32,000 nt of DNA from Moraxella nasovis. GTDB taxonomy: Bacteria; Pseudomonadota; Gammaproteobacteria; Pseudomonadales; Moraxellaceae. The notes below the pieces were generated by a model. It ran no database searches. It had not been told where the DNA came from and saw only the letters and a list, made by a program, of their open reading frames with translations. Shown piece after piece: positions 15,631 to 25,229 of the stretch. Both the position numbers and the translations under genes were made by a program. Positions within the stretch are counted from its first letter, which is position 1; each line of letters opens with the position of its first letter. The DNA lies in NCBI RefSeq assembly GCF_022701215.1, contig NZ_CP089976.1, forward strand, positions 780,001-812,000, in the 5' to 3' direction.

Positions 15631-15847
15631 TGGACTACCAATCAGTTGGTTGGCTTATTCATTTGCTGTATTTGTGGTGTCGCTTACCAAAATCCCATAC
15701 CCTTGCCAAAATACAAGCCTTTATCTTTAGCCACCTGTTACTTCGATCAACTAAATGGTATGCCTTAAACGGATAAATCTTAGTATAAAGACGGAACAGG
15801 CTTTATAAGTAATTGATTTTAAACAATTTTATTTTTATATATTTTTT

Positions 15848-15869
15848 CAATACCAACAATAATACCAAC
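15848..15869. repeat. att direct repeat at the TerL-proximal end
   Basis: CAATACCAACAATAATACCAAC, identical to 24882-24903. It is itself built from two AATACCAAC sub-repeats. Confidence 0.8.
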
Positions 15870-15957
15870 AAAATAAAAAGTAACCCCCTATTTATCACAA
15901 ACAAGGGGCTTTTTTTACCATTCCAAACAGACAAAAAACAATCATTTCAAACAACAA

Positions 15958-17328
15958 TCACGTCCACCACCTTACTTCCAATTTACTGATACAAGGTTCA
16001 CGTTTAAGCACCCCATATCTTAATGCGTCTGCTGCGTGGTCTGCTCCATCGCTTGCCATGTCTTCAGGTCTTTTGTCATCTCTACACAATGTTGGTAAAG
16101 TTTCCCACAAGTAACGGCATTGATTAGAAATATACAAGCCAGCTCTATCAGGTTTGCCAGCGTCAGCCATCAACCGCCTTAAAATATTCCAGCCAGTAAT
16201 GCGGTCTGCTTTCTTAGCTGGTTCAAAATGCACGCTTTGCATTCTAAATTCATCGGCAATACTACCTGTTGCGTGTCCAGCTTTGGCAAAAATTGCGTCA
16301 TCTGCAACGCCCTTAGCTCTAATATTCCAATAATCGCACATTTTTTTAATTTCTTCTGCTAGTGTTGGCACTGTCCAGCCTAAACCAACATTTAAATTAC
16401 CGTGCTTATGCGTTACCAATTCATCAACCACCACCAGCGAACCTTTGGGATAATAACGCCCATTGATTGTATCGCCATAACTTTCAGCGATTACCAGCGT
16501 TGCACTAGGGGCAGATGAACCAAAATCATGGGCTAACCAATAACGCCAACCGTCAGGGATTTCCGTCCATTCTTCAATCATCATGCGTTTTTCATCAAGT
16601 ACATTGGCAAAGTATGCCCCACGGTTTACCGCCCAATTACCATCAATCCACGCTTTTAATAATTCAGGGTCATCAGGACAAGACGCTGTTAATTGTTCGT
16701 TATACTGTTCACGGTCTATAAAGTGGTTATCTGCAAATGTACTGGGGGCGTGTACCCATGTTCTTTTGCTTTTTGGCTCGTGGAATGGTTGCCATGCTTC
16801 AAAACCATTAAATACAAATCTTTTGGCTATCCAATGATGGCCCACGCCTGCAGGGTTTGCACTAATAATCATTCTGATGGGTGTCTTTGTATCACCACGC
16901 AAATTTGAACGCATTAAATCCAATAATCTAGGTTCAGAAAATTGCCCAGCTTCATCAACAACCAGTAAATTAAATGAACGCCCTTGATACTTTGCATAAT
17001 CTGATTGACTTTCTAGCTGTCCAAGCTCCAAATAACCACCATTAGGAAAACGCCAAACGTGTTCAGTTTGATTGTATCTTGCACTTTGTCCGTAAACCAT
17101 GCCAAACACTTCACGGCATATCAATTCAAAATCTGCAAGCCCTTTGTAAGTACGCCGTATAAATAAACACCGTGCTTTTTCTTTGTATAACTCAATATGT
17201 CGTAAAATCAATAAAGCGATACAGTAAGATTTACCACCGCCACGCCCACCAAGTAAGGCAATATCTACACCGTCAGGAATTGCCATTACTTTTTCTTGAA
17301 AACTGTTTAATGGAATATTTTGCATCAT
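15958..17328 (-). CDS. terL: Terminase large subunit
   Basis: 456 aa. It has Walker A LLGGRGGGKS and Walker B LLVVDEAGQF, plus a C-terminal RNase-H-like nuclease with WLAHDFGSS and DGADHAADALRYG. Its start overlaps the TerS stop by 4 nt (ATGA). Confidence 0.9.
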   Translation of the reverse strand: MMQNIPLNSFQEKVMAIPDGVDIALLGGRGGGKSYCIALLILRHIELYKEKARCLFIRRTYKGLADFELICREVFGMVYGQSARYNQTEHVWRFPNGGYLELGQLESQSDYAKYQGRSFNLLVVDEAGQFSEPRLLDLMRSNLRGDTKTPIRMIISANPAGVGHHWIAKRFVFNGFEAWQPFHEPKSKRTWVHAPSTFADNHFIDREQYNEQLTASCPDDPELLKAWIDGNWAVNRGAYFANVLDEKRMMIEEWTEIPDGWRYWLAHDFGSSAPSATLVIAESYGDTINGRYYPKGSLVVVDELVTHKHGNLNVGLGWTVPTLAEEIKKMCDYWNIRAKGVADDAIFAKAGHATGSIADEFRMQSVHFEPAKKADRITGWNILRRLMADAGKPDRAGLYISNQCRYLWETLPTLCRDDKRPEDMASDGADHAADALRYGVLKREPCISKLEVRWWT

Positions 17329-17729
17329 TTATCCCCCTGACTAACCACCTTTAAATAATCGTCCATATTTTGGGCAGGTGCAGGTAAATTAAAAGTAATT
17401 GCAACCTTGTTGGCTTGGTCGGTTTGGTCGTATTCTTTATAGCCGTGCCTTGCTTTTAGTAGGAAAATCGCTGCGGTGATATTGCCTTTTTCCATCGCTT
17501 GCGTGTATAGCATATTATGCAAGTCTTGGCGTTCTTTTTCACGTCCAAGCTCTAAGGCTTGTTCTACTTCTGGAAATTTTTCACGCCATACATAAAATAA
17601 CGATTTTGATATATTACACGCTTTGGCAATATTAGGAATGGAATGCCCTTTAGCGGTCATTTGTTCAATCAGCTTAATATGCTGTGCTGTGGGCTGTTTT
17701 TTGTTGGCATTTAACCCTTTTTGTGCCAT
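17325..17729 (-). CDS. terS: Terminase small subunit (HTH type)
   Basis: 134 aa with an N-terminal HTH (GHSIPNIAKACNISKSLFYVWREKFPE), followed by the ELGREKERQDLHNMLYTQAMEKGNITAAIFLLKARHGYKE pattern typical of small terminases. It is translationally coupled to terL. Confidence 0.75.
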   Translation of the reverse strand: MAQKGLNANKKQPTAQHIKLIEQMTAKGHSIPNIAKACNISKSLFYVWREKFPEVEQALELGREKERQDLHNMLYTQAMEKGNITAAIFLLKARHGYKEYDQTDQANKVAITFNLPAPAQNMDDYLKVVSQGDK

Positions 17730-17740
17730 GTTTTTTCTCC

Positions 17741-17766
17741 AAAGAAAATAAGGGGCTTAGCCCCTT
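17741..17766 (-). terminator. Strong hairpin terminator between the capsid gene and terS
   Basis: AAGGGGC (17750-17756) pairs with GCCCCTT (17760-17766) around a 3-nt loop. On the minus-strand RNA it is followed by AUUUUCUUU, then GGAGA and the terS ATG. Confidence 0.7.
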
Positions 17767-17770
17767 ATTA

Positions 17771-18754
17771 TTATTTACTGATTAAAAATGCCAAAGGAAT
17801 GTTTTTTCGCTCTGTCATACGCTTCCAATGTTCTGCTTTGGCAAGCTCGCTAATGGTTGGGCTTTCGCCTTGTAACTCGCCCTCTACCCATGTATAACCT
17901 AATGGGTGAACCGCTAGATTTAATCGTGAATGCAAAACACTCATACCGCCACCCATACCAGCACTATTGATTAGCTCCACGGCTGTGGCAGGTGTGTGCA
18001 ATGGCTGTGAAATACCATAACTAAATGCACCAGCCCCCAAAAGCACGCTTAAATAATTGCCATCATCGTCAGGCGTTAAACCATCATCTACGATAACCAT
18101 TAAGCCCCTAAACGTTTGAAATGGTCTGCCTTGGCTAGGTGTTACGGTTTGGATTTGGTCGCTTTTGAGTGCGTCAAAATAGATTTTACTGTGCATGGCA
18201 ATCGCAACCACGCTATTAAATGCGTCTCCAAGCGTGGACGCTGTATCTATAACCGCTTCTGATGTAAATTTATTGGTTTTTGTGGCGGTTGTAATATCGT
18301 GTATCATATCACCACCATTTGCTTTGTTGCTTGCCACAATGCCACGGATAGACGCTATTAAGCGTTTTTGTAGCTCGTTATCCCAATAGGCTGTTACACG
18401 CTCTTGGATAGCCTTTAAAGGGTCAGCTCCTGCAATTTCAGCAGATAAGCCCATGCTAGACCATGAATTATGCAAAAATGCTTTTCTGATATTTTGCTTA
18501 TAAGCACTTACCTTTTTTGGTGTGGAATGTTCATCAGGATTGTCAGAAATAATGTCAGCTTCTGCACCGATTGCAATGTCTTTCCAGTAAGGGACGTTAA
18601 AAGACGTTGAACCAGCTTTTAAGTATTTGGAAATTTGGTCGTTTTTAACCAAAAGCCCACTTTCAATCAGCTTGGTTTTAGTTGCGGTTTTGTCTAATAG
18701 ATAATCGGTAAATTGTGATGGCTCGATAATGTCCGTTAATTGAGTAGTTGCCAT
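17771..18754 (-). CDS. Major capsid protein (HK97-fold family, by sequence pattern)
   Basis: 327 aa from the ATG at 18754, which has a GGAGA site 8 nt upstream. The N-terminus MATTQLTDIIEPSQFTDYLL...VPYWKD...SDNPDEHSTPKKV...DPLKAIQERVTAYWDNELQKRL matches the pattern I recognise from a widespread phage major-capsid family. It sits between a scaffold-position gene and the terminase genes. Confidence 0.78.
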   Translation of the reverse strand: MATTQLTDIIEPSQFTDYLLDKTATKTKLIESGLLVKNDQISKYLKAGSTSFNVPYWKDIAIGAEADIISDNPDEHSTPKKVSAYKQNIRKAFLHNSWSSMGLSAEIAGADPLKAIQERVTAYWDNELQKRLIASIRGIVASNKANGGDMIHDITTATKTNKFTSEAVIDTASTLGDAFNSVVAIAMHSKIYFDALKSDQIQTVTPSQGRPFQTFRGLMVIVDDGLTPDDDGNYLSVLLGAGAFSYGISQPLHTPATAVELINSAGMGGGMSVLHSRLNLAVHPLGYTWVEGELQGESPTISELAKAEHWKRMTERKNIPLAFLISK

Positions 18755-18802
18755 ATAATATTCTCCAATAGCAAAGTTACTGTTAATTGGTGAATATTTT
18801 GC

Positions 18803-18831
18803 ATTACAAAATAGGGGTGTACATTGTACAA
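18803..18831 (-). promoter_or_regulatory. Candidate sigma70-type promoter for the capsid/terminase genes
   Basis: The minus strand reads TTGTAC, a 17-nt spacer, then TGTAAT, about 45 nt upstream of the capsid ATG. It lies just after two terminator-like hairpins and overlaps a TGTACAATGTACA repeat. Confidence 0.3.
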
Positions 18832-18852
18832 AAAAAAGATAGGGCATAGCCC

Positions 18853-18886
18853 AAAAAGAAAAGGTGTCAGCATTGCCAACACCCTT
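18853..18886 (-). terminator. Terminator-like hairpin after orf300
   Basis: AAGGTGT (18861-18867) pairs with ACACCCTT (18879-18886) with one bulged base and an 11-nt loop. On the minus-strand RNA it is followed by UUCUUUUU. Confidence 0.45.
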
Positions 18887-18895
18887 AATTTTACT

Positions 18896-19798
18896 TTATT
18901 CTAAGCCAAAATGCAATCTATCATCATCTGATAACGTTTGGTTTGGCAAACGGTCAGCAGTCTCTAAAAGTGCAGGTATTTGGGCATTATAATAATCTAC
19001 TGCTTTTTGCTTTTTTTCCAGTTCGCTTTTGAAGAACTTAACCAGCTTGGTAACTTGTTCTTTTACTTTTGGTCTGCCAATAAATACGCCGTCTTTATAC
19101 TCACAAAGCTCTTTAACTTCCCAGTGTAAATCAATTGCGTCCGAACCTGTGCCACTTCCCCTTACTTCAGTATAACAATGGCTTGGAAAACGTTCTCGTA
19201 TTTCGTATAACTCACGTCTATCTACCAGCACATTATCAGCATTGACAAAACAATAACCAGTTTTAAAAACGGTTTTATAAGTTTCTTTTTTGCTATCCTT
19301 GCAGATTTCTCTTTGTTTTAATGGTTCGTTGTCAGCATAAATAACTTTATAACCTCGTTTACTTAATTCATATTCCATATAATCCCTACTACTTGGCAAA
19401 ACGTCAATCACATTATAAAAAACCGCTTCTAAGTATTCAGTTTTTTTGTATTCTTCAAAATCTGATTTAACTTGTTGCAATTCGTCATTTAATTTTTGCA
19501 ATTCTGATATTTTAGATTGACTTAACTCTAAATCTTGTTTGCTTGCTTTTAATTTACCCAAAAGCTCTCTGTTTTTGGCGGTTAATTTTGTTACTTCATC
19601 AGACTTGTCTAATAAGTTTTCATCAGATTTTTTAATAAATCTTTCATCATTTTGGTTTTTATTTTCTGATAAATTTTCATCATTTTTGGATAAACTTTCA
19701 TCTAAATTTTGGGTTAAATTTTCGTTTTGTTTAAGCAAATTTTCATCATTTTGCACGTCTAAAACGTCATCATTTTGGGTTAAATTTTGTTCGGTCAT
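18896..19798 (-). CDS. Hypothetical protein; acidic repeat N-terminus plus coiled coil, in the scaffold position upstream of the capsid gene
   Basis: 300 aa. Residues 1-70 are degenerate (D/N)ENL(L/S/T) repeats. Residues about 70-120 are heptad-like (LLGKLKASKQDLELSQSKISELQKLNDELQQVKSDFEEYKK). I recognise no catalytic motif. The scaffold call rests only on position and composition. Confidence 0.45.
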   Translation of the reverse strand: MTEQNLTQNDDVLDVQNDENLLKQNENLTQNLDESLSKNDENLSENKNQNDERFIKKSDENLLDKSDEVTKLTAKNRELLGKLKASKQDLELSQSKISELQKLNDELQQVKSDFEEYKKTEYLEAVFYNVIDVLPSSRDYMEYELSKRGYKVIYADNEPLKQREICKDSKKETYKTVFKTGYCFVNADNVLVDRRELYEIRERFPSHCYTEVRGSGTGSDAIDLHWEVKELCEYKDGVFIGRPKVKEQVTKLVKFFKSELEKKQKAVDYYNAQIPALLETADRLPNQTLSDDDRLHFGLE

Positions 19799-19847
19799 TT
19801 TTGTTACTCCGATTGGTTTTTTAAATCATTGATGGGTTTTTTGGGGT

Positions 19848-20028
19848 GGTATCCCTTTTTTGTTTGTCATCTTGGGCATCTTGGTCATCTTGTAGTATTT
19901 TCAAGGGTTGTAGCGGTTTTTTGGTTGGGCATCTTAAAATCAAGATGACCATGGTAAAAACTCTGTAAGCCTTGATTTTACTTTAAGTTGCCCAAGATGA
20001 CCAAGATGACCATATAATAAGGGATACC
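19848..20028. repeat. Iteron-rich, globally palindromic intergenic region; candidate replication origin of the island
   Basis: Three tandem 9-mers of (T/G)CATCTTG(G/T) lie at 19867-19893. An inverted pair GCATCTT/AAGATGAC lies at 19929-19949. Two tandem CCAAGATGA copies lie at 19992-20009. The outer inverted repeat is GGTATCCCTT (19848-19857) and AAGGGATACC (20019-20028). The region lies immediately 3' of the rep helicase gene. Confidence 0.6.
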
Positions 20029-20050
20029 TACCTAATTTTTGCCTTTATGA

Positions 20051-21433
20051 TTAGTTTTTTAAATCAATAAAGATACTTGGCTCGTGGTTTTTATAAGCAG
20101 GTTTTAAGCTCCAATACCAGCCATCTTTTTTCTTTTCAGGGCGGTTACAAACCTTTTCCCTTGCACTTCTAATCTGCTTAATAGTAAACCCTGCTTCTTT
20201 GGCTTCTTGTTCAATTTCCGATACTTTCATATCGTCCACATCTAGAAGTATTTCTAATAAAAATTGTTTGGCATAATCTGCACTTGACATCTCCTTTTCT
20301 TCTTCGGTTTGTTCGGTTTGGTTTAGTAATTCTTTGGTTGTACCTTGCTTAAAATTACCCCATTTTATGCGTGTGGTATCTATATCATCAAGTTGGCAAG
20401 GCTCTATAAAATACTCAAAACCACCATCAATCTTTGCGATATTGGTTTTGGTCTTGGTAAAGATATTTGGCTTGTCAGGCTCTTGTGCTGGTGCTGTTAC
20501 CCATGCCATGCGTGCTAAGGCGGTAAATGCCTGAGAACCGATAACTCGCTCCGTTGGGTCTTGCCCTTTTGTACCTTTGGCAAAATGGGTGATACCAACA
20601 ATGGCAAAATCTAACTCATTTGCCATTTTTACCAATATATCCAAAGACGCTCGCACTTCGTTGGCATGGTGCATATTACCGCTTACCACCGCCAAAATAG
20701 GGTCAATCATCACAAGGCGAACATCACGCCCTTGTAATGCTTCTGCAAGCCGTGGCAAGTCTTCTGATGGGTCAAAATACCGCTCTTCTCCCTTTTCCAT
20801 CACGCTATCTACAAAATGCACTTTGGATAGGTCAGCTCCCATTGCTTTTAAGCGTGGCGTTAGTGTGTCGTGAATGTCATCTTCGGTAGAATAAATCACG
20901 CATTCGCCCACATTGTCGCAAATACTCCCATCAGGGAATGCACCGCCTGTTGTGATGGCTCGTACTAGGTCTAATGCAATGGTGGTTTTACCACTACCGC
21001 CAGCCCCTGCAAAGGTGGTTAATTTGCCAAGTGGTAACCAGCCACGCCATAGCCATTTTATCGGCATAGGCTTCACATCAGAAGCACAAATTAAATTAAG
21101 CTCACCGCCTTGCTTAAATAAGGCGTTCAAGCTTTGCAAAGTGGGATTATTTGGCATTTTTACCAAAAACTTCTTATCCCCACCTTTTAATAATTCGCTT
21201 TGGGTGATAATTCTGATATTTTTTCGCTCTTCTATGGCGTTATCCACCAAGGTGTTAATATCATCATAAAAAACCACGTCAACACCGATTTTCATTAAGG
21301 TATCATGCACATCAATATCATCGGTTAAGATGATATTGTTGCTTGTTACTCGTCCTTTATAAAAACCGTTTGGATTTATTTTGAATTTTGGGTCTATGCT
21401 ATCAATTATCATCACAAGGCTCCCACTCTTCAA
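20051..21433 (-). CDS. Replication initiator/helicase, RecA-like AAA_25 (RepA/DnaB-like) NTPase
   Basis: 460 aa. It carries the pattern IKWLWRGWLPLGKLTTFAGAGGSGKTTIALDL (Walker A), Walker B VRLVMIDPI, and GITHFAKG. This pattern is typical of the replication proteins of P4/PICI-like islands. I see no primase motif. Confidence 0.78.
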   Translation of the reverse strand: MKSGSLVMIIDSIDPKFKINPNGFYKGRVTSNNIILTDDIDVHDTLMKIGVDVVFYDDINTLVDNAIEERKNIRIITQSELLKGGDKKFLVKMPNNPTLQSLNALFKQGGELNLICASDVKPMPIKWLWRGWLPLGKLTTFAGAGGSGKTTIALDLVRAITTGGAFPDGSICDNVGECVIYSTEDDIHDTLTPRLKAMGADLSKVHFVDSVMEKGEERYFDPSEDLPRLAEALQGRDVRLVMIDPILAVVSGNMHHANEVRASLDILVKMANELDFAIVGITHFAKGTKGQDPTERVIGSQAFTALARMAWVTAPAQEPDKPNIFTKTKTNIAKIDGGFEYFIEPCQLDDIDTTRIKWGNFKQGTTKELLNQTEQTEEEKEMSSADYAKQFLLEILLDVDDMKVSEIEQEAKEAGFTIKQIRSAREKVCNRPEKKKDGWYWSLKPAYKNHEPSIFIDLKN

Positions 21434-21587
21434 AGATGGTTACTTTCTTTTGGGTTAGGATTTCAGCATTTGGACAATTACTCTTAATTTGTCTGATATG
21501 CTTAATTGCCTGCTCTTTTGATGAAAATAACTGCAAAGACATAAATCCTTTGGTAAGACAACTCACCACATACTCATAATGGGTCAT
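21402..21587 (-). CDS. Hypothetical protein (61 aa)
   Basis: Its ATG overlaps the stop of the upstream 80-aa ORF by 4 nt, and it overlaps the rep start. No motif recognised. Confidence 0.5.
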   Translation of the reverse strand: MTHYEYVVSCLTKGFMSLQLFSSKEQAIKHIRQIKSNCPNAEILTQKKVTIFEEWEPCDDN

Positions 21588-21826
21588 GCTTCATCTCCCA
21601 AACTATCTAACAAATCATGCGTTTTTTGGCTGTCTTTGTAGGTTTGTTCCACCTTTTCCCAAAGTAGAAAAATTAGGCTGTTAACTCTCTCTTGTTCAAA
21701 ATTTGGGTTGCAAGTGTACTCATACAATAAGCCCATGATATTGTTAATGTCTTCAAGCGAACTCATAACGTCTTCAGCATGGGCTAGGGTGTTGCATTGC
21801 TTGGCGGTTAGGTTTTGATATTTCAT
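21584..21826 (-). CDS. Hypothetical protein (80 aa, predicted helical)
   Basis: It shows a 4-nt ATGA overlap with the upstream ORF and with the downstream ORF. No motif recognised. Confidence 0.55.
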   Translation of the reverse strand: MKYQNLTAKQCNTLAHAEDVMSSLEDINNIMGLLYEYTCNPNFEQERVNSLIFLLWEKVEQTYKDSQKTHDLLDSLGDEA

Positions 21827-22407
21827 TTTGCACCCCCTTTAAATACGCCTAGAATGCGTTTTAAGGCACTTTTAGGCTTAGGTGGTGCATAGGTAGCACA
21901 AGGGGCGTTATTAAGCGATTTTAGGGCGTGTATGGCGTTATAAATGGCATTGGCACGCTCACAATAGCCGTTAAAGGGTTCTTGTGCGTGTAGCTCGTTA
22001 TAGCGGTGGTATTCGTCTGATAGAACGGTTAGGGAATGATTTAAGATAGATTGGTTCATGGCGAACGCTCCTAGATATTTAGTTGCTTTTACCACCCAAC
22101 AAATGGGGTGGCAGGTCTCAACTACCGTATCTAGACGGCTGGGGCTATTTCCTTTCGGTCTTGTATTTGCCCCTATCAACCCGCCATAAACTGATTTTTC
22201 AGAATATGGGGTGTTTTCGCCTGTGGTGGGCGAAAAAATAGCCAAAGTATGACGGTTTGGCTTTACCGCTAGATATTTAGTAGTGGGCGTATTATTGCCT
22301 AAAATATCATTTTTTGAAAGTGAAATAATTTCATCAAAAACCTGTTTTAATTTAAAATAATTCATGTTATACTTACTCACATTAAAAACTTCTCTTAAGT
22401 TTGTCAT
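21823..22407 (-). CDS. Hypothetical protein (194 aa from the ATG at 22407; an alternative internal start at 22059 would give 78 aa)
   Basis: An open frame of 199 codons, although the track start is a TTG. The ATG at 22407 follows AAAGGGGG. An in-frame ATG at 22059 has a perfect AGGAG site with an 8-nt spacer. The N-terminal half is low-complexity (rich in T, P, G, N, S). Confidence 0.5.
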   Translation of the reverse strand: MTNLREVFNVSKYNMNYFKLKQVFDEIISLSKNDILGNNTPTTKYLAVKPNRHTLAIFSPTTGENTPYSEKSVYGGLIGANTRPKGNSPSRLDTVVETCHPICWVVKATKYLGAFAMNQSILNHSLTVLSDEYHRYNELHAQEPFNGYCERANAIYNAIHALKSLNNAPCATYAPPKPKSALKRILGVFKGGAK

Positions 22408-22444
22408 AAACCCCCTTTGCAAAGATTGGTAAAGGGGTGTTTTT

Positions 22445-22633
22445 TTATTTGCCCTGTGCTTCTATCCATGCGTGAATGTCGCTGTTACGCCATGCGGTCA
22501 TAGTGCTGGATAATTTGACTGGTTCAGGGAATTTGCCTTCCCTTACCCATTTCCATACGGTGGATTTACCAATGGGTAAAAAAGGTAAGATTTGATTAAT
22601 ACGGCTCATGCCGTCTTTGGGTAGGTTTTGCAT
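22445..22633 (-). CDS. alpA: AlpA-family transcriptional regulator/excisionase-like HTH protein
   Basis: 62 aa. ILPFLPIGKSTVWKWVREGKFPEPVKLSSTMTAWRNSDIHAWIEA matches the AlpA/Phage_AlpA pattern (STIYR..K.G.FP.PVKLG.R.V.W...DI..WI). A GGAG site lies 8 nt upstream. Confidence 0.85.
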   Translation of the reverse strand: MQNLPKDGMSRINQILPFLPIGKSTVWKWVREGKFPEPVKLSSTMTAWRNSDIHAWIEAQGK

Positions 22634-22713
22634 AAATACACTCCATAATGGTCTAGCGTTGTTTGTGGGTGTATTTTAGGTGCATTGATAAAATGAAAAA
22701 AGACTAAATAGCC

Positions 22714-22740
22714 GTAAAAATAGGGCTATTTAGCCCTAAA
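22714..22740 (-). terminator. Hairpin plus U-tract between orf238 and alpA
   Basis: TAGGGCT (22721-22727) pairs with AGCCCTA (22732-22738) around a 4-nt loop. On the minus-strand RNA it is followed by UUUUU (22720-22716). Confidence 0.5.
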
Positions 22741-22759
22741 AGCTACAACAAAAAAGGGC

Positions 22760-23476
22760 TTATTTGTCCTTTTGATTGTAATAATACTTGTCGTTTAGAT
22801 ATTCAAGCCAATTTGCAACAGTTTCTTTGGCTATACCTACTTTATGCTTATGGGTTAAGTTTAGCAATATATCATTTAAATTGCCTTTGGTTGTGCCGTC
22901 TAGTGTGTAACCGTGTTCAGTCATCAAAGCATATAATAATTTTGATATGGTGCTTTTGCTGTTGGGGGTTAATCCTTGTTCACCAACTTGTAATAGCTCG
23001 TTTTGTAGCTTTTCAACCTGTTTATTTAAATCATTAATAATTTTATCTTGTTTGGCAATTTTGTTTGATGGCTCATCATGCTTTTGTTGCGTCAGCATTA
23101 AGATAACTTCTCGCAATGCCTTGTTTTCTGCTTCTAGCTCGTTTATCTTTCGTTTTAGTTTTTTGTGCTTTTTATCCGTCTGTGTGGGCGTTACATCAAT
23201 GACAATGGGCTTTCTTTTTTGATCTTGTAGCGTGTGTGATATTTTTTTCAAGTACGTGGGATGTCTTTGGTCTTGTAGCGTGTGTGATACTATGCTTGGT
23301 GGCATATTCGCCATTAGCTTTTGCACCGCCTGTTGTACCTCTATTGGTGGTCCAAATACCTCTTGAAGTTGCTGTATAACTTCATCAATCAATTTGGCAT
23401 TTTGCCTAAGGGCAGATTGTAAATTCGTTTCTTGATAATCTGCTATTGTCTTATATAGTGATGGTGGAATTTTCAT
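22760..23476 (-). CDS. Hypothetical coiled-coil protein with a possible C-terminal DNA-binding tail
   Basis: 238 aa, starting 16 nt after the int stop with an AAGG ribosome-binding site. It has a central heptad region (KKLKRKINELEAENKALREVILML...INDLNKQVEKLQNELLQV) and a duplicated SHTLQDQ segment. The C-terminal tail STISKLLYALMTEHGY...GIAKETVANWLEYL resembles an HTH. Confidence 0.6.
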   Translation of the reverse strand: MKIPPSLYKTIADYQETNLQSALRQNAKLIDEVIQQLQEVFGPPIEVQQAVQKLMANMPPSIVSHTLQDQRHPTYLKKISHTLQDQKRKPIVIDVTPTQTDKKHKKLKRKINELEAENKALREVILMLTQQKHDEPSNKIAKQDKIINDLNKQVEKLQNELLQVGEQGLTPNSKSTISKLLYALMTEHGYTLDGTTKGNLNDILLNLTHKHKVGIAKETVANWLEYLNDKYYYNQKDK

Positions 23477-23492
23477 AAACTTACCTTAAAAA

Positions 23493-24830
23493 TTAGCCCG
23501 CCAAAACTTCTAACCGCTCCATGCGGTGAATGTCTAGCTCGTCTTGAATTTCCTGCTCTTTGTATCTTAGGCTTTGTAAAAAGCTAATAAACGCCATTTC
23601 ATTGCCGTCAGCGGTCGATTTGGCTTTGTAGGTGCTAAAATCCCCTTGCTTGACTTCATTTACAACATTTGCCCAGTCATTCACCATCTTTATTCGTGCT
23701 GGTAGCAGATTAGCGGAGTTATAGGCTCTTACCGTCTTACTGCCTTGGACGTGGGATAATTGTAGCTCTATGGCTTGTGGGTTGTACTGCATTTCATAAA
23801 GTGAAGTACTAGCCAAGCCCCTAAATCCGTGTCCTGTCATTTTGTCTTTGTAGCCCATGCGTTTTAGGGCAACAGTAAAGGCATTGCTACTTAATACATT
23901 ATCCTTACCCCTATTGCTAAAAAACACAAATTCATCATGCAAATGCCATGATTTAATCGTCTGCAAAATCTCTATCACTGGTGGGGCTAGTGGCACAACA
24001 TGGGGTAAGCCGTTTTTCATGCGGTTAGCAGGGATATTCCATAAGCAATTATCAAAATCCAACTCTTGCCATGTCATGCCTAATAGCTCTTTGGTACGAA
24101 CGAACGTATAACACAACACATAAAAGCCAAATTTAGTTAATGGCTCACTATTTGAAGTATCAATGTCGGTTAGTAGCTTTGGTAGCTCGGTTATTTTTAT
24201 GCGTGGATAGTGCTTGCTTTTATGCTCTACTAATGATTTATGAATACCCCTTGGAATGGGGTTAGCAAGGTTTGGGGCAAGCCCTTTGATGATTGCATGG
24301 TCGTAAATTCTGCCAATATCAGCAATAACCTTGTGGGCGGTGGACGTTTTGCCTTGCAATGCCAAACGGTCATGCACCGCCATAATGTCAGGCAATCGCA
24401 CGGTGTAAATGTCTTTATCACCTAATAGGGGCTTGATATGGTTGTAATAAACCCCTTTATCTCTTTTAAAGGTATGCGGTTTTATGCGTGTTTGTTGGTG
24501 TTCAAACCATATTTGGGCAAAATGGTCAAAGTCTAGGTTGTCTTTTTGCTTGGCTTTTTGGCGTTCGTCTTTGGGGTTAATGCCTTGTGCTAGGTCATTT
24601 CTAATTTTGGTGGTTTCGTTTCGTGCGTCTGCTAAACTGATAAATGGATACAGTCCTAAACTGATATTTTGCTGTTTGCCTTGATAGCGATAAGCAACCA
24701 CCCATGATTTAACACCTGTGTATCTTACCCATAGTTGCAAGCCGTTCATGTCGCTGTACTTGTCAGGGCGTGTGGCGGTGCATTTATCGGACGGTTTTAA
24801 TTTCTTAATAGCGGTATCGGTTAAAGCCAT
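23493..24830 (-). CDS. int: Tyrosine recombinase/integrase, P4 (DUF4102-N-terminal) type
   Basis: The N-terminus MALTDTAIKKLKPSDK...NGLQLWVRYTGVKSWVVAYRYQGKQ is DUF4102-like. Catalytic residues are seen in TFVRTKEL (R), HGFRGLAST (HxxR) and LSHVQGSKTVRAYN (H...Y). I prefer the ATG at 24830 to the GTG at 24848. Confidence 0.92.
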   Translation of the reverse strand: MALTDTAIKKLKPSDKCTATRPDKYSDMNGLQLWVRYTGVKSWVVAYRYQGKQQNISLGLYPFISLADARNETTKIRNDLAQGINPKDERQKAKQKDNLDFDHFAQIWFEHQQTRIKPHTFKRDKGVYYNHIKPLLGDKDIYTVRLPDIMAVHDRLALQGKTSTAHKVIADIGRIYDHAIIKGLAPNLANPIPRGIHKSLVEHKSKHYPRIKITELPKLLTDIDTSNSEPLTKFGFYVLCYTFVRTKELLGMTWQELDFDNCLWNIPANRMKNGLPHVVPLAPPVIEILQTIKSWHLHDEFVFFSNRGKDNVLSSNAFTVALKRMGYKDKMTGHGFRGLASTSLYEMQYNPQAIELQLSHVQGSKTVRAYNSANLLPARIKMVNDWANVVNEVKQGDFSTYKAKSTADGNEMAFISFLQSLRYKEQEIQDELDIHRMERLEVLAG

Positions 24831-24881
24831 GAATGATAAGCCTTGCACGTGGATTTGTTGGTATTATAAGGAAATGAACTA

Positions 24882-24903
24882 CAATACCAACAATAATACC
24901 AAC
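24882..24903. repeat. att direct repeat at the integrase-proximal end
   Basis: CAATACCAACAATAATACCAAC, identical to 15848-15869. An inverted copy of the sub-repeat (TTGTTGGTATTAT, 24855-24867) lies just inside the element. Confidence 0.8.
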
Positions 24904-25229
24904 TTTTTTCATGGCTTGCAATAGATAATCATAGACAATCACGGATAACAAAACCGCTAAAACCCTAGAAATAACAAGGGCTGTCGCATGATTATGGACA
25001 ACCCTAGATTATAGTATGGTCTCTAGTATAAAGACAAAACTCACCAAAACCATCTAAGCCAAAATTCAACCCTTTATCTATTTGACTTAAAATACTGATG
25101 CCAAAAAGACAAAACATACATGTATTTAAAATTTAGCTGGCAGTTTTGACACAAAAAAACAACCGCCTTATTTAGCGGCTGCTTTTTTTGGCTTGCAATA
25201 CACCTTAATATAGACTCTAAAGCACTACA

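Follow-up and report, generated by a model that had tools for sequence, protein, structure and literature searches.

Positions 780,001 to 812,000 of the Moraxella nasovis contig NZ_CP089976.1, a stretch of 32,000 nucleotides to which we refer as the window, contain a small integrated element that encodes its own phage-type head proteins. The initial annotation described it as a unit bounded by perfect 22-bp direct repeats (15848-15869 and 24882-24903) that enclose exactly eleven open reading frames (ORFs) on the minus strand, and both repeat copies as well as the eleven ORFs were confirmed. All eleven are intact and co-oriented, with a largest gap of 252 bp, and run from an integrase through orf238, AlpA, three small ORFs, an AAA_25 helicase and an iteron region to orf300, a major capsid protein (MCP) and the small and large terminase subunits (TerS and TerL). 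The functions proposed for the integrase, AlpA, AAA_25 helicase, MCP, TerS and TerL genes were upheld by matches to hidden Markov models (HMMs).

The MCP gene (17771-18754, minus strand) encodes 327 amino acids, counted from Met-32 of a 358-amino-acid ORF, and the product is 100% identical to an annotated M. nasovis protein of that length (P0001). It belongs to the Gp13-like family PF20036 and matches phrog_247 (E 9e-86), and its AlphaFold model, with a predicted local distance difference test score (pLDDT) of 71, is most similar in the PDB to SPP1 gp13 (6r3a_A, E 6e-18), followed by Acinetobacter phage SH-Ab15497. Judged by its sequence and modelled fold, the protein is an SPP1-type HK97-fold capsid protein; SPP1 heads are built with a scaffold and without a protease. 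Downstream lie the genes for TerS (134 amino acids, 17325-17729, minus strand; phrog_309, E 2e-15), which has an N-terminal helix-turn-helix domain, and TerL (456 amino acids, 15958-17328, minus strand; Terminase_3, E 5e-15, Terminase_6N and phrog_2, E 4e-39), and the TerS stop overlaps the TerL start. The HMM searches uphold the capsid and terminase calls, whose failure would have undone the original interpretation, and the capsid model with its SPP1 gp13 match agrees for the MCP.

The gene upstream of the MCP gene, orf300 (18896-19798, minus strand), had been left unnamed. We assign it to a head scaffolding protein with an N-terminal acidic repeat extension on the basis of its position and the matches of its homologues, and the case for this function is good but not proven. 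In 17 of the 18 bounded members of the family described below, a homologue directly precedes the MCP gene, and three of the homologues match phrog_206 (head scaffolding protein) with E values of 1e-6 to 2e-4. In common the proteins have a coiled coil at the N-terminus, a small domain in the middle, the glycine-rich motif A(S/T)GGGA and, at the C-terminus, FGL(R/K); the A(S/T)GGGA motif is found as well in the gene that lies upstream of the MCP gene in Serratia phage Eta. The structure predicted for orf300 is one long helix, a poor model (pLDDT 54) built with four homologues only. Its N-terminus (19605-19792) consists of degenerate 45-nt repeats that encode 15-residue acidic DENL-type units, and these repeats extend the Moraxella scaffold to 300 amino acids, compared with 160-200 in other genera. 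A hairpin scan revealed strong hairpins on the minus strand between the scaffold and MCP genes (18860-18886) and, terminator-like, directly after the MCP gene (17747-17769), which may set the ratios of scaffold, MCP and terminase, as well as a terminator-like hairpin after TerL (15882-15910).

None of the eleven ORFs matches a portal protein in Pfam or PHROGs; no ORF of more than 238 amino acids is left unassigned, and no gap exceeds the 252 bp given above. Searches of Pfam, PHROGs and NCBIfam gave no match in the element to a head maturation protease, head-tail adaptor, head-tail connector or HNH protein, and those of Pfam and PHROGs none to tail, holin or lysis genes. A repressor-type protein was likewise not found in the element. 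The absence of tail, lysis and CI/Cro-type genes, from which it had been concluded that the element is not a prophage, therefore holds, with the qualification that a structured RNA sits at the position expected of a regulator.

At the other end of the element, a P4-type tyrosine integrase (23493-24830, minus strand) matches Arm-DNA-bind_3 (E 2e-23), Phage_int_M and Phage_integrase (E 5e-21). Its likely start is the ATG at 24830; the ORF reaches a GTG at 24848, and the M. oculi orthologue begins MALTDTA. It is followed by orf238 (22760-23476, minus strand), a coiled-coil protein with no significant family match, for which tblastn found no counterpart in other Moraxella elements and whose position is occupied by different genes across the family, and by an AlpA-family excisionase/regulator of 62 amino acids (22445-22633, minus strand; PF05930, E 1e-10). 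Three coupled small ORFs, orf61, orf80 and orf199 (21402-22422, minus strand), gave no family matches, and homologues of orf80 and orf199 are confined to other Moraxella elements. PADLOC and NCBIfam searches of the unassigned ORFs returned nothing meaningful for defence or cargo functions.

The replication module comprises an AAA_25 replicative helicase of 460 amino acids (20051-21433, minus strand; PF13481, E 1e-32, with matches to primase/helicase PHROGs) and the intergenic region 19799-20050, which by its sequence is an iteron-type origin. As initially reported, this region contains iterons: seven CAAGATGMC(C) units form an origin-like cluster of two inverted groups at 19865-20011, and the motif has 13 matches in the whole window compared with 3.5 expected.

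Using an alignment of capsid homologues, we searched one genome per species, IMG/VR and JGI metagenomes and retrieved 51 genome loci, 80 viral contigs and 80 metagenome contigs. Every locus whose MCP is at least 44.5% identical to that of the window shares a common layout as far as the contig extends: integrase, often AlpA, a variable replication module (AAA_25 helicase, or CHC2 primase with DUF3987), an orf300 homologue, MCP, TerS and TerL. The TerS and TerL genes of some members come before the scaffold gene instead, and part of these members carry a second type of TerL. The hosts are dozens of Gamma-, Beta- and Alphaproteobacteria and include Moraxella, Pseudomonas relatives, Halomonas, Marinobacter, Microbulbifer, Lysobacter relatives (Xanthomonas/Lysobacter group), Comamonas, Rubrivivax, roseobacters (Roseovarius) and Paracoccus. 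Integrated copies with flanking repeats (n = 18) measure 8.7-10.8 kb, and the ten members scanned for tRNA genes are located at tRNA-Gly(CCC), tRNA-Pro, tRNA-Arg or tRNA-Asn genes or at tmRNA. Seven metagenome contigs of 7,654-9,892 bp have terminal overlaps and were assembled as circles, three of them with the full set of modules.

The family is well separated from known phages. Its MCPs are 45-82% identical to that of the window, compared with at most 37% for cultured phages and about 40-42% for the nearest metagenomic phage contigs, and the 73 at or above 44.5% identity group into one exclusive clade when 132 capsid proteins are placed in a neighbour-joining tree. TerL proteins of the main type share 60-91% identity with the window TerL and those of the second group 44-48%, compared with at most 32% for cultured phages. 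All contigs that bear a portal or MuF gene fall outside the clade, except two M. bovoculi contigs in which MuF belongs to a neighbouring element. The portal of phage Eta used as a query matched nothing in any family locus, and homologues of the Eta portal and MuF proteins were present only in contigs outside the clade. Portal, protease, tail and lysis genes are missing from all members; a few carry one extra morphogenesis gene.

Some members deviate from the common layout. Four loci (L034, L048, L063 and L206) have a single head-tail adaptor or neck gene homologous to one of phage Eta, and another (L041, 11131-12807) encodes a tape-measure-like protein of 558 amino acids. Four circular assemblies of 7.7-8.6 kb (L056, L060, L070 and L173) carry scaffold and MCP genes with no detectable TerL; the only one inspected closely, L060, encodes a replication-like protein of 542 amino acids, a putative small terminase and a serine recombinase in place of the tyrosine integrase. 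Two members (L028 and L043) lie on separate contigs of one genome, that of Marinobacter zhanjiangensis KCTC 22280.

In open-access papers and bioRxiv, we found no published family that combines a capsid protein and TerL with the lack of a portal, and only one preprint, on 'twilight' genomes, surfaced. The suggestion of the initial annotation that the element may represent an undescribed minimal satellite lineage is in line with this searchable literature. We consider it probable that the family is a distinct lineage without a published description, a judgement that we make jointly with the reading of its members as intact helper-dependent satellites.

In some M. bovoculi strains, genes for head-closure, tail-chaperone, tail-tip and muramidase proteins occur within 500 bp after TerL. 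Because the identity between copies ends exactly at the attachment (att) core derived from tmRNA, these genes belong to a neighbour, and we rejected them as part of the element. In three loci (L133, L135 and L139), a tandem cluster at ssrA starts about 300 bp past the satellite core and encodes a head-closure protein, TAC_13 and tail_T chaperones, a MuF-CdiA_C_tRNase toxin fusion, a GpJ-like tail tip and a muramidase, with no tape-measure gene visible after the chaperones. From their sequences, these strains are best read as showing tandem occupancy of the ssrA site, and the cluster could be a decayed prophage or a helper. Two further loci (L136 and L137) differ from L132 by a second P4-type integrase/AlpA island right after tRNA-Ser(GGA) (L132, 13731-13821), a site that is empty in M. 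bovoculi strain CP011380. In addition, the starts of Logan contigs from five strains fall within about 45 nt of one position, a short way upstream of the helicase operon, suggesting that a repeat has its boundary there.

The 22-bp repeats had been taken as the bounds of the element; its ends very probably lie further out. The 22-mer CAATACCAACAATAATACCAAC has two exact copies in the window; allowing up to 3 mismatches brought out no further copy there, and 100 shuffles gave none. Each copy consists of AATACCAAC twice in tandem, and a third, inverted copy lies 27 nt 5' of the integrase start (24857-24865, minus strand), an arrangement shared with M. oculi. Outside both 22-mers the sequence still resembles the M. 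oculi element: 15794-15869 is 80.5% identical over 77 nt to its TerL-side end (L001) and 24882-25021 is 82% identical over 139 nt to its integrase-side end, and the homology stops at 15794 and 25021. Directly beyond these points stand the two copies of a 12-bp direct repeat, TAGTATAAAGAC, at 15781-15792 on the TerL side and 25024-25035 on the integrase side, which we propose as the att core; they are its only copies in the window, where none is expected by chance.

The M. oculi copy adjoins tRNA-Pro and not dtpT and the M16 peptidase gene, and because the sequence outside both 22-mers is conserved despite these differing chromosomal contexts, we read the 22-mers as internal to the element. We further read them as arm-type integrase sites because each is a tandem 9-mer, a third inverted copy lies beside the integrase gene, and the integrase has an arm-binding domain. 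The predicted arrangement places one tandem pair on the P arm (15848-15869) and one on the P' arm (24882-24903), each followed outward by element DNA: a spacer of 55 bp on the TerL side (15793-15847, minus strand) and 120 bp on the integrase side (24904-25023, minus strand). Matching distances recur in the family: in 15 of 16 members, the outer core is separated from the longest repeat that both ends have in common by 105-133 bp on the integrase side and 39-71 bp on the TerL side. In M. bovoculi, the 3' end of tmRNA serves as the outer repeat, and a second repeat, of 17 bp, is nested within it at distances of 112 bp and 66 bp; copies from different strains keep 99% identity as far as the outer repeat and diverge immediately past the tmRNA-derived core. 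Two other relatives (L051 and L009) likewise combine an outer repeat derived from tRNA or tmRNA with an inner repeat at corresponding distances, and the junction of a 9,581-bp circle (L054) contains a copy of a tRNA 3' end with repeated TGTACAC motifs on either side, in sequence the layout expected of attP.

On these grounds, the 22-mers are with high probability arm-type sites on the P and P' arms of a unit of 9,243 bp, and the attP design is most likely lambda-like, with a short core between paired arm-type sites, namely the 22-mers. That the 22-bp repeats are themselves the core and the boundaries, as originally proposed, seems improbable to us. They are perfect, occur nowhere else in the window and enclose all genes, and in M. 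oculi this sequence forms a perfect repeat of 29 bp that is found at either end of the element; yet this view does not account for the conserved DNA beyond them in unlike contexts, for the nested repeats of equal spacing in M. bovoculi, L051 and L009, or for the circle L054, which retains such repeats on both sides of its tRNA-like core, and a tandem pair with an inverted copy next to the integrase gene is typical of the sites of an arm-binding integrase. Under the outer-core model, the circular junction is predicted to read ...TATGGTCTCTAGTATAAAGACGGAACAGG..., attP ...CCCTAGATTATAGTATGGTCTCTAGTATAAAGACGGAACAGGCTTTATAAG... and the repaired attB ...CGGATAAATCTTAGTATAAAGACAAAACTCACCAAAACC....

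Two further repeats were observed near the ends. The short sequence GCCAAAAT(A/T)CAA(G/C)CCTTTATCT occurs at 15705-15726 and 25058-25079 (91% identity), outside both cores in the chromosomal DNA; at an unoccupied site, its two copies would enclose the core at a distance of about 100 bp from each other, and they may be a trace of earlier integrations. A 22-nt stretch of the origin region (19899-19920) is 91% complementary to one in the P' arm (24950-24971), which, as a sequence match, could represent a shared site for AlpA or a host factor.

A structured RNA of the Rfam family sRNA-Xcc1 lies at 22102-22185 on the minus strand (55.3 bits, gathering score 53; E 5e-8), within orf199 (21823-22422) and 260 nt downstream of alpA, and the N-terminal part of orf199 may therefore be non-coding. 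Three relatives (L054, L009 and L051) have a C4 antisense RNA between the integrase and replication genes, and one of them, L054, additionally carries c4-a1b1 and isrK. The M. bovoculi element gives a sub-threshold sRNA-Xcc1 match, and a likewise sub-threshold match to the Rfam int-alpA RNA motif lies in M. bovoculi just past the integrase stop (L132, 5219-5300; 29.6 bits, gathering score 35.8). The three RNAs sRNA-Xcc1, isrK and C4 are direct neighbours in a Xylella genome. P1 and P4 exert immunity through C4/CI RNAs. The structured RNA occupies the place where an immunity or regulatory function is expected, and by analogy RNA-based control of the replication operon is plausible; a search for antisense targets returned two 8-nt complementary matches only and no convincing pairing.

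The initial annotation likened the element to the phage-inducible chromosomal islands that form capsids (cf-PICIs), and this comparison stands in part. Like the cf-PICI EcCIEDL933, the element has an int-alpA-rep backbone (the integrase, AlpA-type regulator and replication gene, here an AAA_25 helicase, are present by Pfam), its own HK97-fold MCP, TerS and TerL, and no tail, holin or lysis genes, and its capsid and terminase proteins are only distantly related to phage proteins. The SatelliteFinder cf-PICI model has 11 core components, of which at least 9 are required, and at most 6 of the 11 are present in the element. In its way of working the element would come closest to a cf-PICI, but it falls outside the definition of that family, since it has no portal, protease, head-tail connectors (adaptor and connector) or HNH. 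The description of the element as stripped down relative to larger cf-PICIs with a full head module is borne out by its 9.2 kb, compared with about 14-15 kb, and by the missing portal, protease, connector and HNH genes. cf-PICIs pair a protease with a PF05065-type capsid, whereas the element pairs a scaffold with an SPP1/PF20036-type capsid and would need the portal and neck of a helper as well as its tail.

Other satellites resemble the element in part. With P4 it shares an arm-binding integrase, AlpA and a small genome (P4 measures 11.6 kb), and relatives share C4/CI-type antisense RNA with a1/b1 targets; the match in the window is to sRNA-Xcc1 and not to the C4/CI RNAs of P4-type immunity. 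Psu, Delta, Sid and the alpha primase are absent from the element (no Pfam, PHROG or NCBIfam match), whereas P4 has no capsid protein or terminase and remodels P2 heads by an external scaffold. Classical phage-inducible chromosomal islands of Gram-negative bacteria (PICIs) and Staphylococcus aureus pathogenicity islands (SaPIs) likewise have int, alpA, a replication module with an origin and TerS, some also with capsid homologues or internal scaffolds, but they lack TerL and use heads of helper capsid, in contrast to the TerL, full-length MCP and scaffold of the element. Virion-encapsidated integrative mobile elements (VEIMEs) and PICMIs (phage-inducible chromosomal minimalist islands) are small integrative elements of marine Proteobacteria that carry int, AlpA and a replication module, in some cases also TerS. 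A major capsid gene is missing from VEIMEs, whose concatemers are packaged into the heads of a helper; PICMIs reportedly have a reduced gene content without capsid-remodelling genes, capsid or TerL. We rejected membership in either group because those elements have no capsid genes.

The twilight-zone mini HK97-fold genomes, many of them complete below 11.6 kb without portal or tail genes, are similar in size, in their terminal repeats and in carrying MCP, scaffold and integrase genes, and portal-less particles are discussed for them (10.1101/2025.06.18.659913). The circular relatives of our element stem from metagenome data of the kind mined there. The group described is from the human gut, measures 8.9 kb, has encapsulin-like capsid domains and RepA and explicitly lacks a terminase, unlike the element, and its authors read it as a possible single-stranded DNA or procapsid entity and not as a terminase-bearing satellite (10.1101/2025.06.18.659913). 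A commentary of December 2025 still recognises two kinds of satellite, those that divert the capsids of a helper and cf-PICIs, which make their own.

On the sequence evidence, the element (15781-25035, about 9.24 kb) is likely to be an intact phage satellite that depends on a helper and belongs to a distinct family for which we found no description. We infer the dependence on a helper from the missing portal, tail and lysis genes. In the proposed cycle, a helper phage or an SOS signal would trigger excision by the integrase and AlpA, and the excised circle would replicate from its iteron origin with its own helicase. The scaffold and MCP of the satellite would then build a shell around a portal supplied by the helper, TerS would recognise the satellite DNA and TerL would pump it through this portal, and the neck, tail and lysis proteins of the helper would complete and release the particle.

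The size of the elements is narrow across distant hosts, at 8.7-10.8 kb for integrated copies and 7.7-9.9 kb for terminal-overlap contigs, and this suggests a limit set by the capacity of the capsid. We estimated capacities by T^1.5 scaling from the 42.7-kb genome of phage Eta, whose head we assumed to be T=7 because SPP1 heads have this geometry. By this arithmetic, which is not evidence, a T=3 head would hold about 10-12 kb and a T=4 head about 18 kb, so that one copy in a T=3, two in a T=4 or several in a T=7 head all fit. We speculated that the family follows a third satellite strategy, in which the element encodes shell and motor and nucleates its own procapsid, as a small T=3 or T=4 head, on a stolen helper portal; this specific scheme seems to us about as likely as not to be true.

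Several points weigh against the interpretation as an intact satellite with these ends. The scaffold assignment relies on weak HMM matches of homologues, while orf300 of the window itself matched nothing, and we know of no direct precedent for a shell of one element assembled around the portal of another. The 12-bp core is short and rests mainly on its position and the analogy with relatives. The adjacency of dtpT and the M16 peptidase gene is absent in the nearest Moraxella species, with a single M. nasovis genome on record, and there is no prophage within the window. A classical capsid-size redirector of the PICI/SaPI type, whose MCP homologue and scaffold co-assemble with the helper capsid in the manner of SaPIbov5 Ccm and of CpmB, is an unlikely alternative. 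Some PICIs do encode capsid homologues that redirect helper assembly (background given in the cf-PICI preprint), the lack of a portal and connectors demands tight physical co-operation with helper head parts in any case, and the circular variants of 7.7-8.6 kb have scaffold and MCP genes with no detectable TerL. The element, however, has a complete scaffold-MCP pair plus its own TerL, the main type of which is conserved more strongly than the capsid (60-91%), and mixed lattices with a helper capsid would be surprising because the family capsids form a deep exclusive clade that has diverged to at most 37% identity with cultured-phage MCPs and about 40-42% with the nearest metagenomic phage contigs.

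The element might also need no helper at all, being either a mini-virus that has no tail and is sufficient in itself or a compartment of the encapsulin or procapsid kind; this idea has been raised for the small HK97-fold 'twilight' genomes, of which the 2025 preprint reports many that are complete without portal or tail genes (10.1101/2025.06.18.659913). We regard this as very improbable, given that the family encodes TerS and TerL, which in tailed-phage packaging are established to act via the portal vertex, that some members have a head-tail adaptor or neck gene, implying tail attachment, and that lysis genes are absent. Still less can be said for a decayed prophage whose capsid and terminase genes were left over from a larger phage, a deletion remnant in the terms of the initial annotation, which we consider extremely unlikely. 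Its support, the tail, head-closure and muramidase genes after TerL in some M. bovoculi strains, falls to the tandem neighbour, and the same compact architecture and size, with intact ORFs, recur in three proteobacterial classes and in terminal-overlap contigs. Moreover, the order scaffold-MCP-TerS-TerL without a portal differs from that of related phages such as Eta (TerS-TerL-portal-MuF ... scaffold-MCP-adaptor-neck-tail).

The element lies between dtpT (POT family) and an M16C/PreP peptidase gene, identified by domain search. These flanks were confirmed as ordinary chromosome, and the rest of the window consists likewise of chromosomal genes for metabolism and transport. A tRNA scan found no tRNA gene in the window; the M. 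nasovis site is a non-tRNA intergenic one and differs from those of the ten tRNA-scanned relatives. For the dtpT product of the window, a look-up by exact sequence gave no match, and the homologue search yielded a single M. nasovis entry. Where Moraxella dtpT genes come closest to that of the window (84% and 78% identity), the gene upstream is lnt and not that of the M16 peptidase.

For the mapping of genomic islands, the locus teaches that perfect repeats around an island can be arm-type integrase sites and not the att core. Satellites known so far either remodel the heads of a helper or specify a complete head. If the satellite interpretation is true, the family would stand between the capsid-redirecting PICIs and P4 and the fully capsid-forming cf-PICIs, and its members would rank as the smallest DNA elements known to code for a tailed-phage-type head of their own, which would lower the size limit for capsid-encoding elements. 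The portal vertex would then be exchangeable between the capsid of a parasite and that of its helper, which raises the question of the assembly rules by which scaffold and terminase recognise a foreign portal. Because the element has too few cf-PICI components for the SatelliteFinder model, current satellite finders may well miss the family, and many such gene-transfer agents may be unannotated, including in Moraxella hosts, which are animal pathogens.

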